Assembly (NCBI GenBank): GCA_965214705.1
Contig: OZ243972.1
Span: forward strand, 256,001 to 320,000
From: Alphaproteobacteria bacterium
GTDB taxonomy: Bacteria; Pseudomonadota; Alphaproteobacteria; UBA828
Direction: 5' to 3'
Length of the DNA: 64,000 nt
Made by a program: the position numbers and the translations under genes. Below the pieces are notes generated by a model, which was not told the DNA's origin, searched no databases, and saw only the letters and a program-made list of their open reading frames with translations. Shown one piece after another: positions 9,379 to 14,491 of this stretch. The number at the start of each line of letters is the position of its first letter. Position 1 is the stretch's first letter.

Positions 9379-10665
9379 ATGAAGACGAAGCTCGGAAAAC
9401 GCGTCGCCAAGACCAAGATTACCATCACCAAGCGCGCCGTCGACGCCCTCAAGCCCACCGACAAGCCCTGGATCGCATGGGATGACAGGCTCACAGGCTT
9501 CGGCGTCAGGGTGCACCCCACCGGCGCCAAGTCCTTCATCGTCAACTACCGTGCGGGCGACGGCGGCAGGAAAGCGCCGAACAAGCAGGTCGTGCTGGGC
9601 CGCTATGGCAAGATCGCGCCCGATCAGGCCAGGCGCCTGGCGCAGACCACACTCGGCAAGGTGGCCAGCGGCGAGGACCCGGCTGAGGAACGTGCGCAGG
9701 CGCGTGGGATGCCGACCCTGGCGGATGCGCTCAAGGACTACTTGGGTGCCAATCCCAACCGCTCCGAGAGCACCAACAAGCTCTACCGCTACGAGGCCGA
9801 GCGCTATCTCGGTGACTGGCTCAGCCGCCCACTCGATTCCATCACGCGGCGCGAGGTGGAGGCCCGCTTCAACCGTATTACCGTGGACCACGGCTGGTCA
9901 CCGGCCAACCACGCGATGTCTCTGCTGCGTTCCGTCTACCGCCGTCCCTGCGTCGATCTCGAAGGTCTGCGCAACCCGGTCGACCTCTGGCTTGTCGCAG
10001 GCGGGAAGTTCCATCGCAAGACGCGACGCAAGATCTCCACGCCCGCCGAGGTGCTGCCCTGTTGGCGAACCGGCATCGAGGCCGAGGTCAAGATGCCGGC
10101 CATGAGTGACGCGCTGTGGTTCGGGCTTTACACCGGCATGCGGCTGAGAGAAGTCCTGACACTGCGCTGGGAGCGAGTAGACATGGCGTCGCTCACCTTC
10201 CGCGTCGAGCAGACCAAGACCGGCGTCCCTCTCGAGCTTCCGATCACCCGGCAACTGCAACTCATCCTCGAGAGGCGTCGGGCGGCGAGGGCGGCGGTGC
10301 CGGGCACCGTCCAGGACTGGGTGTTCCCCTCTCCGGCCAGCAAGTCCGGGCACGTCGAGGATCCGCACTATCTCTACCCGCGCATCACGAAGACGGGCGG
10401 TGCGAAGTTCTGGTTCCATGCGTTCCGCAACTGCTTCATCACGGTGGCCGAACGGGACTTGATGCTTCCCTCGCCGTTGACCAAGCGCCTTGTGAACCAC
10501 GCCAGACCCAACGACGTGACGGAGGGCTATGCTGCGGACTGGACGATCGCCCAGCTCCGAGAGCCGGCTCAAAGGGTTGCCGATCGGATTGAGGCGCTGA
10601 TGGGCACCGCGCCGGAGGTCACCGCCGAACAGGATGATATTCAGGTCGGCGCCGGGTCTGGCTGA
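9379..10665 (+). CDS. Tyrosine integrase with N-terminal arm-binding (DUF4102-like) domain
   Basis: N-terminal 'WDDRLTGFGVRV..GAKSFIVNYR'; catalytic 'TGMRLREV', 'TKTG', 'HAFR', 'LVNHA', 'TEGY'. Confidence 0.9.
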   Translation: MKTKLGKRVAKTKITITKRAVDALKPTDKPWIAWDDRLTGFGVRVHPTGAKSFIVNYRAGDGGRKAPNKQVVLGRYGKIAPDQARRLAQTTLGKVASGEDPAEERAQARGMPTLADALKDYLGANPNRSESTNKLYRYEAERYLGDWLSRPLDSITRREVEARFNRITVDHGWSPANHAMSLLRSVYRRPCVDLEGLRNPVDLWLVAGGKFHRKTRRKISTPAEVLPCWRTGIEAEVKMPAMSDALWFGLYTGMRLREVLTLRWERVDMASLTFRVEQTKTGVPLELPITRQLQLILERRRAARAAVPGTVQDWVFPSPASKSGHVEDPHYLYPRITKTGGAKFWFHAFRNCFITVAERDLMLPSPLTKRLVNHARPNDVTEGYAADWTIAQLREPAQRVADRIEALMGTAPEVTAEQDDIQVGAGSG

Positions 10666-10852
10666 GACGAGGCACGGCGACGGTTTCGACCGAGAAGCGT
10701 TGACCGAGAGAGGCAAGCATCACGAGAGGGCCGGAGGCATTTCGCATCGGGTTGCGGCGTTCGGGCGGCAATGACGGCCTGGCGAGGACGAACGATGACA
10801 GTCGAACTCGATCTGCGCGAAGACACTGCCATCTTCCGTTACCCATCGGGAT

Positions 10853-13200
10853 CTCTCAACTACCCACTGTTGAGTCAGTTCCATGTTTGATCATGTCCAG
10901 GTCCTTCAAGGCACGGTAGGTGAGGGTGGCGTGTCGCAGGTAGACGTAGCCCTTCCAGAGCAGTTGGGTTCCCGGCAGGGGCTGCCGTTTTCGTGGATCG
11001 AAGCCGGCGAACCTGGCGACATCGATGACGAAGGTGCGGATGTCCGGGGGCTTGTCGGGCGGCGGACGGGCGCGAACCATGCCGTAGGCCATCAGCCTGA
11101 TGTAGAGGATGGCGATTTCGTCGTCCGAGACGACGTGGTTGGCCGGGGTGTCCGGCTTGTCGCGCGCGATGCGTTCGAGATCGAAGACGTGGCAGGCGGT
11201 GATGGCATCGAAGGCGACACACTTTCGCAGGTCGTCGGCGTGGTCGAGCTTTCGGTCCTCGACGCGGGTGCCGGTCTTCAGAACCTTGAAGTACTCCTCG
11301 ATGGTCCATCGGCGCTCGTACCAGGTGACGACGGTCTGGGCGGTCTCGGCGTCGGCGCTGCCCTCGGTGCTCAGCAGCAGCCAGTTGAGCGGGTCCTTGC
11401 CGGCGGGCGGGTCGGGTTCGGTCGCGGACACGACGAGCATGTCGACCGGCTCCCGGCTCTCGGCGTCGCGCGGTGGCGCCAGACTGACCCTGGCGGCGCG
11501 CAGCTCCAGCGTTGCCGTGCGCCTGGACCGCGCCCGCTTGCCGCCGCAGGCGCCGATCTCCACGGTCTTGCCGGCAAGGCGCGGGAGAGCGGCGACATGC
11601 TCCCACACGCTCTCCTCCTCGCCGCTCTCAAGGATCACCCGCCGCTGTGCCGACCGGCGCGCGCGCACCAGCAGCGCCGCGCCTTGCGATGCGGCCCTGG
11701 TGAGCAACGCCCAGATGTCGCCCTCCCGGTCGCAGACCGTGACCACCCGCGTCGCAGGGCAGGCGCGGGCCAACTCCTGCGCCCGCTCGTGCCCGCGCAG
11801 CCAGCGTTCACTCTCGATTTCCCTGTCGTCGCCGTCGCGGAAGCTCGCATCAAGGGCGAACACGCCGAGCGGCCGCCCGGCCGCGTTGAGCGCCAGACCC
11901 ACATGCGCCACCAGTCCGCACGTGCCCTTGCCGCCGCCGCCCACCCCGACGAGGCCTTCGGTCGCTTTGAGCCCGTCGTAGTTCAGCGTGGTGGTGTCCT
12001 GGATCGCGAGAACGATGTCCTCAAGCTGGCAGCGCTCCACCATCGTTGCCCGGTGCGGCTCCAGGATGTGCTCCATGCTCACCTTCCCGCTCGACAGCAG
12101 CCGGTAGGCCGCCTTGCGCTCCGGCCGGGCCGGAAAGATCGCCGGGATCGCGGCCCCCGGGCGCTCCAGCCACGCCCGTCCCATGCGCTCGATCCGATCG
12201 CGGACCCGGCCGTCAGGATGCGTGCTGCGCGCATATTCCCGCCCCGCCCAGTCCGTGTCCTCGTCCATGTGCAACGCCGGCGCCGCACGGATGTCCCGGG
12301 CCGGCTCGGCGCACAAGATGGCCTGCCAATCCGCCGCCAGCGGCTTCATCCACACCGTCCGCGCCGCCCCGGCGGCGGACCCCGGCGGCTGGCCCGAGGT
12401 GTGCTGGGAACAGCACCGCCAGCCCGCCGCCCGGTAGCAGGTGCCGGCATGCTCGGGGCCGACATAGCTGTAGGCCAGGACCGGCCGCGCCCTGTAGGCC
12501 GTCTCCCAGTCCGCCGCCACGCGCCCGGCCGCCAGCTCCAGCACCCGCGAGGCCAGACCGTGGACGCGCACGCCGGGCAGAAGCAGGAAGCGATGGTTGT
12601 TGATCAGGAGCGGCAGGTTCAAAGCCCGCGCGTCCGCCGACCAGCCGATAAAGTCGTCGCGCGCCTTCTGGTGCCAGCTCGCGGCGCAAAACCCGATGCC
12701 GCCGAGGCGGCCGTGAAGCGAGGAACGCACCCAGTAGCGCAGCTGCCCGCCCGGAGCCCGCGCCCAGCCTTGCGGGTGGTGCGTCGCAATCATCGCTTGC
12801 CACAGTTGCCGCTCGGCATCGCCGTCGACCGGCTCCAGTGTCACCGAGCCCAGATCCGCAAGCCGGCAGCGAAGCGAAAGGTCGGGGTAGGCTTCGATGG
12901 GCGCACTCTCGCGACGCCCCCGGCCGAACGCCGCCCGCGCCGCCGGCAGCGCGAGCCCGAGCTTGTCCGCCAGAACCGGCAGAGCCTTGCGCGCGGACGC
13001 AAGACAGTGCTCGCCCCGATCGCCGGTCCAGTCCTCAAGCGCGCAGAGATCGCGGGCAAGAGAACTGCGAGTGCGGCCCTCCTCCAGGACCGCCTTGCTC
13101 AACCACTCGATCGTGTCGGCGTGAAACTGGTGAAGGCCAACTTGCATGGCACGACATGTAGCCCACACCACTCATTGAGTCAACTGTGGACCGGTGTGAG
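10853..13200 (-). mobile_element. IS4-family (IS50/Tn5-like) insertion sequence, 2348 bp
   Basis: 9-bp target duplication CATCGGGAT (10844-10852 and 13201-13209); imperfect 25-bp terminal inverted repeats (18/25) starting CTC; splits a reconstructable gene. Confidence 0.9.
10856..13171 (-). CDS. DUF4338-like domain fused to an IS4/Tn5-type DDE transposase
   Basis: N-terminal half 'INNHRFLLLPGVRVHGLASRVL...GTCYRAAGW'; C-terminal half 'IQDTT', 'VCDREGD', 'YERRWTIEEYFKVLK' (YREK motif). Confidence 0.85.
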   Translation of the reverse strand: MVWATCRAMQVGLHQFHADTIEWLSKAVLEEGRTRSSLARDLCALEDWTGDRGEHCLASARKALPVLADKLGLALPAARAAFGRGRRESAPIEAYPDLSLRCRLADLGSVTLEPVDGDAERQLWQAMIATHHPQGWARAPGGQLRYWVRSSLHGRLGGIGFCAASWHQKARDDFIGWSADARALNLPLLINNHRFLLLPGVRVHGLASRVLELAAGRVAADWETAYRARPVLAYSYVGPEHAGTCYRAAGWRCCSQHTSGQPPGSAAGAARTVWMKPLAADWQAILCAEPARDIRAAPALHMDEDTDWAGREYARSTHPDGRVRDRIERMGRAWLERPGAAIPAIFPARPERKAAYRLLSSGKVSMEHILEPHRATMVERCQLEDIVLAIQDTTTLNYDGLKATEGLVGVGGGGKGTCGLVAHVGLALNAAGRPLGVFALDASFRDGDDREIESERWLRGHERAQELARACPATRVVTVCDREGDIWALLTRAASQGAALLVRARRSAQRRVILESGEEESVWEHVAALPRLAGKTVEIGACGGKRARSRRTATLELRAARVSLAPPRDAESREPVDMLVVSATEPDPPAGKDPLNWLLLSTEGSADAETAQTVVTWYERRWTIEEYFKVLKTGTRVEDRKLDHADDLRKCVAFDAITACHVFDLERIARDKPDTPANHVVSDDEIAILYIRLMAYGMVRARPPPDKPPDIRTFVIDVARFAGFDPRKRQPLPGTQLLWKGYVYLRHATLTYRALKDLDMIKHGTDSTVGS

Positions 13201-14491
13201 CATCGGGATACGACCGGATCGTCAATGAGCTGGACGGTCTACTGGACCGGCGGGACAGAGGAGAGCTCGCGGATGCCGGATACGTGAGCGGACTGGAGGA
13301 TCTCGTTGCGCGCCACCCCTGGTTCATCGATGGCCACGCACACCTGGGAAGCGCACTTTACCGGCAGGGCGAGACCGAAAGTGCGCTGGATGCCTGCATG
13401 CGGGGCTATTCGCTGGGCACGGAACTACTGACGCCGGACATGCAGGAGCTTGTCGAATGGAGCCACCTGGAGAACCGTCCGTTTCTGCGCGCGGCCCACG
13501 GCGCCGCTCTCTGTCATTTGCGGCTGGGCGGGCGGGGGGAAGCCATATCTGTCATGGAGCGGATCCTGCTGTGGAACCCCGACGACAATCAGGGCATCCG
13601 CTTTCTGATCGGCTCGGAATACATGCGTACGGGCCAGGAGGGCCGTGCCGAGACGTTCTTCGAGACGGAGGCGCCGGGCTATCCTCCGTACTGGTACGAG
13701 AAGGCGCTTCTGTTTCTGCGCCAGGACAGGCATGTGGCGGCGGCGACCAGCCTGCGCCGCGGGTTCGTGGAGAACGGCTACATCGCGGAGATTCTTTGCG
13801 GGAACCCCGACCCTCGCCCGATCGGGATCTGGCACGGATGGGTCTTTGCCGAGCCGGAACTGGCGAAGAAGTATGCGGATTCGTATGGCGGCCTGTGGCA
13901 CGAGACTGCGCACGCGATTTCCTTTCTGCGCTGGCTGCACATGCATCCCGTGATCATGTCCGAGCGCGCTGCCATCCTTGAGCTGAGCGAGCGTCTTCTC
14001 TGGGAGTTCGATGTCGAGCGGCGCGAGTCGATTTCGCGGATGCAGGATGAAGCATTGGCGCTGATCGACGACGAGCTGTCGGAGGAGATTGTGATCGATC
14101 GCGCCGACAGACGCGGGAGTGCGGTCTCTCCCTGGCTTTTTTCGTGAGGTTCCGGCAGACCGCGAGCCTGGGGCCGGCCGAGACAGGACGGGTTCGAGGC
14201 ACGGCAGCGTCCCGCCGACCGTCAGCAGTGCGGTTCGATTATTCCGGTCGGGAAGGTCGCGAGCGAACTGCTTGAACCGGAAGCGGAGCGCAGCGAGACG
14301 GTCTTGGCGCCGGCGCACCGGCGTGTTATCGGACCGCCTCGGCACAGGATCGGAGACCCGCACATGGCGACTTCCCAACCCGGCATGTTGTCAAGCGCGC
14401 CTTGACCCGCCGCAATGCAGCAAGATCAATGGATTTCCGCGCCGATCGGCACCGAACCTACGCGCCGAACAACAGGTGACGGGAGGCAGCA

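Follow-up and report, generated by a model that had tools for sequence, protein, structure and literature searches.

The window analysed here, the whole 64,000-nucleotide stretch at positions 256,001 to 320,000 (forward strand) of contig OZ243972.1 from an alphaproteobacterial genome (UBA828 lineage, GenBank assembly GCA_965214705.1), contains a complete insertion sequence (IS) of the IS4 family, Tn5/IS50 type. As a rule, insertion sequences are regarded as encoding a transposase only. In this element a single open reading frame (ORF) also carries an N-terminal module of the DUF4338/DruA family, and this module is our main subject. The features of the element are as follows, with coordinates in the window.

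10853..13200, minus strand: complete insertion sequence, IS4 family, Tn5/IS50 type, 2,348 bp; six identical copies in the genome, ends set by the duplications
10844..10852: left 9-bp target-site duplication, CATCGGGAT, read from the window sequence
13201..13209: right 9-bp target-site duplication, CATCGGGAT, read from the window sequence
10853..10877: terminal inverted repeat at the stop-codon end; 18 of 25 positions agree with the reverse complement of 13176-13200
13176..13200: terminal inverted repeat at the start-codon end, counterpart of 10853..10877
10856..13171, minus strand: single ORF, 771 aa from the GTG at 13171, stop codon at 10856-10858
12959..13147, minus strand: predicted small N-terminal domain, residues 9-71, a beta-hairpin and three helices, possibly helix-turn-helix (HTH)-like
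12302..12874, minus strand: DUF4338/DruA domain with predicted GNAT fold, residues 100-290; R194 codon at 12590-12592, S208 codon at 12548-12550
10859..12283, minus strand: complete Tn5-type transposase, residues 297-771, matched by NF033590 and, through a profile of relatives, to 1muh

The ORF fills the element almost end to end, leaving 3 bp on one side and 29 bp on the other, as an initial annotation made from the sequence alone had described. The length of 771 aa given there probably has to be revised: homologues begin at the position of Met9 (ATG 13145-13147), a nearly invariant residue, and the product is therefore probably a protein of 763 aa starting from ATG 13147 rather than the 771 aa listed. 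From the N-terminus, the protein consists of the small helical domain, a linker, the DUF4338/DruA GNAT domain and the transposase. The transposase part is complete. It matches NCBIfam NF033590 (IS4 family transposase) with 298.9 bits against a cut-off of 160 (residues 354-752, profile positions 1-405 of 405) and the Tn5 N-terminal DNA-binding model with 30.7 bits against a cut-off of 27, and the profile of 63 relatives (alignment A1) aligns with the Tn5 transposase 1muh over Tn5 residues 10-461 (E 5.8e-69). Read against the 1muh alignment, the catalytic triad is D392, D481 and E625, accompanied by Y618, R621 and K632; the signature of the IS4 family is Y-(2)-R-(3)-E-(6)-K.

A search of the organism's own genome (7.92 Mb) with the 2,348-bp IS returned six full-length copies at 100% identity, one further copy at 94%, one split copy (92% and 96%) and one 173-bp fragment, which is the copy count that the initial annotation had proposed to make. 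The 9-bp duplication differs from copy to copy in all six identical copies: it is CATCGGGAT in the window and, as extracted by script, GCCTCGAGC, GCCGGGCGC, CCGCCGGGC, GCCCTGGGT and GTTCGGCAC at the other five. Because the six identical copies each have their own 9-bp repeat, the ends are exact and the movement is recent; the ends are also fixed in this way independently of the earlier guess. The complete IS with a 9-bp duplication, the imperfect 25-bp inverted repeats (19 of 30 positions match over a longer stretch) and the mobility of the whole fusion as one unit had all been recognized correctly. With its retained DDE triad and YREK signature and its six identical copies with distinct duplications, the IS is, by its sequence, an active Tn5/IS50-type element with 9-bp target duplications, and its predicted mode of movement is the ordinary DDE cut-and-paste chemistry of the Tn5/IS50 family. 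The split copy is located at G000:C3:2635200-2639647 (L008, L009) and contains a 2,096-bp insertion, with IS positions 1262-1265 found on both sides of it.

The roughly 296 residues that precede the transposase had been assigned to DUF4338/DruA, and this assignment is borne out. The protein scores 78.9 bits against Pfam PF14236 (cut-off 27; residues 112-233), and 62 of 63 aligned relatives match this family as well. An AlphaFold2 model of residues 1-300, computed with the 63-sequence alignment, has a mean predicted local distance difference test score (pLDDT) of 92.8 and consists of a hairpin and three helices (9-71), a low-confidence linker and an alpha/beta domain (100-290). According to this model the DUF4338 module has the GNAT alpha/beta fold, and the small helical domain is possibly DNA-binding. 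In a Foldseek comparison with the PDB the matches were GNAT acyltransferases, the best being SpeG (E 8.3e-5). A PDB sequence search with the family profile found only the Tn5 transposase, and the N-terminal module was unmatched even at E<=10. Fusion partners of the same module also include ankyrin repeats, in P0072, and an HNH_2 nuclease domain, in P0059.

Judged by the modelled structure and the conserved residues, the nearest characterised relative of the GNAT domain is Mom of phage Mu. In a structure comparison by Z score Mom lay 2 to 2.4 Z units above every acetyltransferase. A profile of the module aligned with a 112-sequence Mom profile over 140 columns (hhalign, E 2.9e-4), and the Pfam Mom family was matched at E<=1 by 17 of the 63 family members (best 0.0011), a general GNAT family by two. 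A paralogue in the same genome (L098) matched Pfam Mom with E 0.006 and 16.7 bits, and the PHROG profile 'Mom-like DNA modification protein' matched residues 232-259 of the IS protein (E 0.065). The accessible part of PMC13219725 describes R111, S124 and R151 of Mom as essential and H58, Y59, W48, Y159, W181 and D149 as important; the numbering there is, in our reading, that of the Mu record plus 10. In the profile alignment, which pairs sequence profiles and not superposed coordinates, H132 of the IS protein corresponds to H58, R194 to R111, S208 to S124 and Y246 to Y159. The counterparts of the essential R111 and S124 are nearly invariant, and each of H132, R194, S208 and Y246 is retained in at least 90% of the 63 diverse sequences, fused or free-standing. 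A Mom-like H-Y pair is present in many relatives. The motifs quoted in the initial annotation are all present (NNHRFLLLP at 191-199, LASRVL within 205-211, AYSYVG...GTCYRAAGW at 233-251), and GTCYRAAGW aligns with GVVYQASNF of Mom, the site of Y159.

The module is not confined to this element. A HMMER scan of residues 1-300 against 1.84 billion representative proteins gave 4,293 representative clusters at E<=0.001 and 2,035 at E<=1e-10, and a word-based search found many fusions of about 760 aa that carry merely the NCBI name 'IS4 family transposase'. When a genome collection was scanned with alignment A3, 563 of 584 candidate stretches were confirmed and the best 80 were retained. These are top-scoring loci, several per genome, and thus not an unbiased sample; they come from many bacterial phyla and one ANME-2 archaeon. 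Classification by purpose-built hidden Markov models, checked with Pfam and NCBIfam, gave the following arrangements.

39 of 80 loci: module fused in front of a Tn5-type transposase; 28 loci intact, the other 11 broken or reaching a contig end; 24 assemblies by record names
7 of 80 loci: module gene immediately downstream of the gene for a Tn5-type transposase and in frame with it (stop, one codon, ATG)
26 of 80 loci: module adjoining an IS66-family transposase gene; 22 downstream, often with a 4-bp overlap, and 4 upstream
2 of 80 loci: module fused to an IS4_1-type transposase
6 of 80 loci: no adjoining transposase seen

Linkage to a DDE transposase was thus found at 74 of the 80 best-scoring loci. 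The module is repeatedly and tightly associated with Tn5-type (in two ways), IS4_1-type, ISAs1 and IS66 transposases. The initial annotation had mentioned that DUF4338 occurs beside transposases, which is correct but understated, as the module is a recurrent companion of several families and not part of a one-off fusion. A quick maximum-likelihood tree was built on the GNAT part (76 rows, with 16 broken or near-identical fused loci left out); Mom and DruA lie on very long branches in it and their placement is unsure. Support is given by the SH-like approximate likelihood ratio test (SH-aLRT).

Tn5-fused, 24 rows: one clade, SH-aLRT 86
ISAs1-fused, 6 rows: one clade, SH-aLRT 99
IS4_1-fused, 2 rows: one clade, SH-aLRT 99
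Tn5-downstream, 7 rows: one clade, SH-aLRT 100

That each arrangement forms its own clade points to separate recruitments. The Tn5-downstream clade is nested among IS66-linked rows, which make up the rest of a 27-row set (support 98); Tn5-type transposases have therefore gained the module at least twice, and in different ways.

A few individual loci deserve mention. The Tn5-downstream arrangement, found at L038, L047, L048, L051, L056, L058 and L080, looks like a termination-reinitiation coupling, judging from the order of stop, one codon and ATG. The IS66-linked loci are 26 among L041-L090 and three in the organism's own genome (L093-L095). Among the six module genes that lack an adjoining transposase, the one at L065:4974-7592 is followed by genes for a DUF192 protein and a queuine tRNA-ribosyltransferase (Tgt), which may be a plain chromosomal context. 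ISAzo13 was considered as a further partner because of P0255, in which the module is linked to an ISAzo13 DDE domain; a partial Tn5 transposase is kept there, possibly reflecting a nested insertion that reads as a single frame, and the case was not counted.

In the organism's own genome PF14236 has 55 matches, 54 of them over the cut-off, and there are none in 14 control genomes. Apart from the IS and the IS66-linked genes, these matches include an element whose ISAs1-family transposase (NF033564) is fused to the GNAT part of the module only; it is present in about 25 identical copies, and variants of it occur as well. In one ISAs1-type element (L092:4113-6031; G000:C1:3141500-3150500) the first frame, of 394 aa, contains the DUF4338 GNAT domain and DDE_Tnp_1_assoc and stops just past C AAA AAA AC (slippery run, L092:5281-5289), and the ISAs1 catalytic part lies in the -1 frame. 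Elements of this type probably use a programmed -1 frameshift. An ISAs1-type copy at L101 is a single 610-aa frame. The genome also encodes a true DruA (L096:4165-5361, minus strand; G000:C3:1267359-1268237; PADLOC DruA1 E 9e-196; Pfam positions 3-295 of 297), followed by a gene for an 822-aa protein with no Pfam or PADLOC match. Within the genus the family is present in 12 of the 18 other genomes searched (G001-G018), with at most 46 matches each. The number of PF14236 copies is 0 in the smaller genomes (3.5-4.3 Mb) and 33-46 in several of 5.8-6.3 Mb, and bursts of DUF4338 elements within the genus are suggested.

What might such a module do? We tentatively favour, with a probability of about 0.4, the reading that it works on nucleic acid as a Mom-type transferase and is delivered by the transposase to its own DNA, where it would mark bases in order to tune or protect transposition. 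We infer an active transferase because fused and free forms alike have kept the active-site residues, and action on nucleic acid in cis because of the kinship to Mom and the physical or translational coupling to the transposase. As a Mom-like enzyme, the module would transfer a group onto nucleic acid, with aminoacyl-tRNA or acyl-CoA as candidate donors. Tethering to the transposase, or co-production with it, would bring the module to the ends of the element, to the donor site or to the target DNA, where bases would receive a covalent mark. This mark might then tune later binding or cutting by the transposase, or it might shield the transposition intermediate from host nucleases. The logic is comparable to that of Dam methylation, which gates IS10 and IS50. 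The domain would in this way serve the control or the protection of transposition, and the presence of companion domains across unrelated transposase families suggests an undescribed layer of transposition control. A much wider generalisation, namely that DUF4338/DruA modules are Mom-type base-modifying enzymes that at least four DDE families have repeatedly recruited to mark ends, donor or target, and that DruA is the DNA-marking component of Druantia type I, strikes us as unlikely.

A number of observations weigh against the reading of the module as a Mom-kind, base-marking enzyme. In the accessible part of PMC13219725, the R151A mutation abolishes Mom activity and an HTH-like insertion (about 175-209) is needed for it. 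Counterparts of D149 and R151 are absent in the clade of the IS protein, where these columns read G238 and the E240 region (YSYVGPE); the wider family reads ETFV[D/E]..R there. Likewise, the HTH-like insertion has no equivalent in the AlphaFold2 model, which has only a 14-residue loop between the strands 252-257 and 272-277 and a short helix at 282-286. The IS protein is unmatched by Pfam Mom PF25680 (cut-off 27.1 bits) at E<=1, all Mom sequence scores lie below the family cut-off, and the hhalign probability is only 40.7% against the 112-sequence Mom profile and 3% (E 0.015) against the single Mom sequence. In the Foldseek comparison with the PDB, Mom (8BV8) was not at the top but at rank 38 (E 7.7e-4), and among predicted viral proteins uncharacterised GNAT-like proteins came first and a protein named Mom at rank 19. 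The accessible part of the same Mom paper (PMC13219725) also states that substrate and co-substrate are not predictable from the structure. Moreover, Tn5 and many Tn5-type insertion sequences transpose without any such domain, and in a plasmid collection none of 639 matching records covers 80% of the query, i.e. only the transposase part is matched; the domain-less Tn5-type transposases on plasmids are only about 30% identical to that of the IS. Because D149 and R151 are unmatched, the HTH-like insertion is absent and the scores are below the cut-off, we call the module Mom-like and not a member of the Mom family. The earlier proposal of a Mom/GNAT likeness thus stands for the fold and for the stretch around Y159, and not for these features; the 'SY' of the motif quoted there is specific to the clade of the IS protein, while the wider family has ETFV[D/E].

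The same data can be read in other ways. The GNAT domain could be an ordinary acyl-CoA protein acetyltransferase that regulates transposition by acetylating lysine residues, either on the transposase or on some DNA-binding protein of the host. Apart from Mom, the structural neighbours with high scores are indeed all acyl-CoA N-acetyltransferases (SpeG, Naa60, RimI, AAC(6')), and the association with several transposase families would suit a regulatory role equally well. In addition, the clade of the IS protein has R202-x-x-G205-x-A207 where the CoA pyrophosphate loop would lie, in agreement with the loop by which GNAT enzymes usually bind CoA. An ordinary acyl-CoA enzyme therefore has to be reckoned with, and the loop counts against the Mom-like reading. 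Across the family, however, this loop is V-x-V-x-N-L-A-S, mostly with N and not G, and resembles R-N-S-E-S of Mom, and both the lead of Mom in Z units and the Pfam counts given above (two members matched by acetyltransferase families, 17 by Mom) argue for Mom; we hold an acetyltransferase to be an unlikely alternative. Somewhat less likely still is that the module is a passenger with a host or element function of its own (defence, counter-defence or DNA marking) that insertion sequences merely help to spread and that plays no part in transposition. The family names DruA of Druantia type I, of which a true representative is present in the same genome, and there are partners other than transposases, namely the ankyrin repeats and the HNH domain mentioned above and, in the accessible part of PMC10853773, the N-termini of some DndF proteins. 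A passenger would fit poorly with a module that is in frame with the transposase or translationally coupled to it, rather than being a separate cargo gene with its own signals, and with five transposase arrangements maintained over deep divergence; nor does the IS protein reach more than 13.3 bits with PADLOC DruA or adjoin any Druantia genes.

The lack of D149 and R151 counterparts in the clade would also be explained if the domain were non-catalytic and served to target or multimerise the transposase by binding DNA, a ligand or a protein, and extra binding domains are common in transposases. We consider this improbable, as the retention of H132, R194, S208 and Y246 in at least 90% of the 63 sequences is the pattern of an active site and not of a scaffold. 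Finally, the domain might act on charged tRNA in the manner of the GNAT toxins TacT and AtaT, and either slow translation during transposition or cause addiction. Aminoacyl-tRNA is a ligand of Mom itself, the structure of which can be superposed on complexes of FemX and TacT, as far as the accessible part of PMC13219725 goes. Yet a one-ORF element of 2,348 bp holds no antitoxin-like partner gene, 55 family matches in one genome would be hard to bear for a toxin, and no GNAT-toxin structure is near the top of the structural matches, so that a toxin is very improbable.

As regards its surroundings, the IS lies within a host gene, whose two pieces are listed here.

10795..10852, plus strand: 5' piece of the host gene, from the empty-site rebuild; start codon uncertain, with an in-frame ATG also at 10771
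13210..14147, plus strand: 3' piece of the host gene, from the empty-site rebuild and the ORF list

Deletion of the IS and one repeat copy in a script gives a single open frame (MTVELDL...) with its stop at 14147. The host gene is therefore interrupted near its 5' end, and the in-frame target gene proposed earlier is recovered. The interrupted gene is preceded, at a distance of 130 bp, by a 428-aa ORF (9379-10665) that looks like a phage-type (tyrosine) integrase; a tRNA-Ile gene is located at 637-730, 8.6 kb upstream. The IS may be located inside an integrated element. A scan of 10750-13300 for sigma-70-like promoters gave 0 sites; TTGACT, 17 nt and TACATG can be seen by eye in the start-proximal end of the IS and fail the rules of the scan.

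An enzyme-like, conserved module that travels with several transposase families, and in some genomes is present in dozens of copies, is of interest whichever reading applies. Mom is the sole known GNAT that modifies DNA with charged tRNA. If the module modifies DNA, transposons would have a novel means of self-regulation or self-protection, a function that can be tested would be available for DruA, whose gene is the first of Druantia type I and is so far unexplained, and new DNA-modifying enzymes might be obtained from such modules. Should it acetylate proteins instead, it would remain a widespread, unstudied regulator of transposition. Our literature searches found no paper on DUF4338 in insertion sequences (ISfinder, InterPro or supplements may hold named members) and none that combines Druantia, Mom and GNAT. 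'Mom-like' together with transposase turned up only a prophage survey, as judged by title and abstract, and among the matches listed nothing relevant was found, by title and abstract, on an accessory acetyltransferase of IS66. The accessible part of the YprA helicase preprint (10.1101/2025.09.15.676423) mentions neither DUF4338, GNAT, acetyltransferase nor transposase and has nothing on the function of DruA.

It is useful to compare the element with the systems that it resembles. With IS50/Tn5 (NF033590; 1MUH) it shares a full-length transposase match that includes the N-terminal DNA-binding and C-terminal dimerisation parts, the DDE and YREK residues, the 9-bp duplication and imperfect terminal inverted repeats beginning with CT. 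The difference is the approximately 296 residues (helical domain and GNAT) added before the transposase, which give an element of 2,348 bp. DruA of Druantia type I (PF14236; PADLOC DruA1) belongs to the same Pfam family as the IS module, of which the IS protein covers only profile positions 52-176 of 297. PADLOC DruA1 matches the IS protein with E 0.0081 and 13.3 bits (residues 141-186), whereas the true DruA that the genome also encodes reaches 648.8 bits. No druB-E genes were found near the IS, whose neighbours are the integrase gene and the interrupted host gene. With both a full-length DruA match and druB-druE lacking, the IS protein is not a DruA of Druantia type I. The partners are also different, a transposase for the IS module and a helicase system for DruA. 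In the accessible part of PMC10853773, DUF4338 is described as a GNAT domain that is fused to the N-terminus of some DndF proteins. Mu Mom (PDB 8BV8; PF25680) moves glycine from Gly-tRNA(Gly) onto N6 of adenine in double-stranded DNA, a Gly-tRNA-dependent reaction with N6-carbamoylmethyl-adenine as the product; the IS protein has an extra N-terminal helical domain and the transposase fusion, neither of which is found in Mom. The other DUF4338-bearing insertion sequences (IS66-linked, ISAs1-fused, IS4_1-fused, and Tn5 with a downstream gene) share the module and its conserved residues with the IS, and in all of them it stands in cis with a DDE transposase. What sets them apart is the family of the transposase, the gene order and the form of coupling (fusion, 4-bp overlap, stop-codon-ATG or a probable -1 frameshift), and the ISAs1 fusions are without the small N-terminal helical domain.

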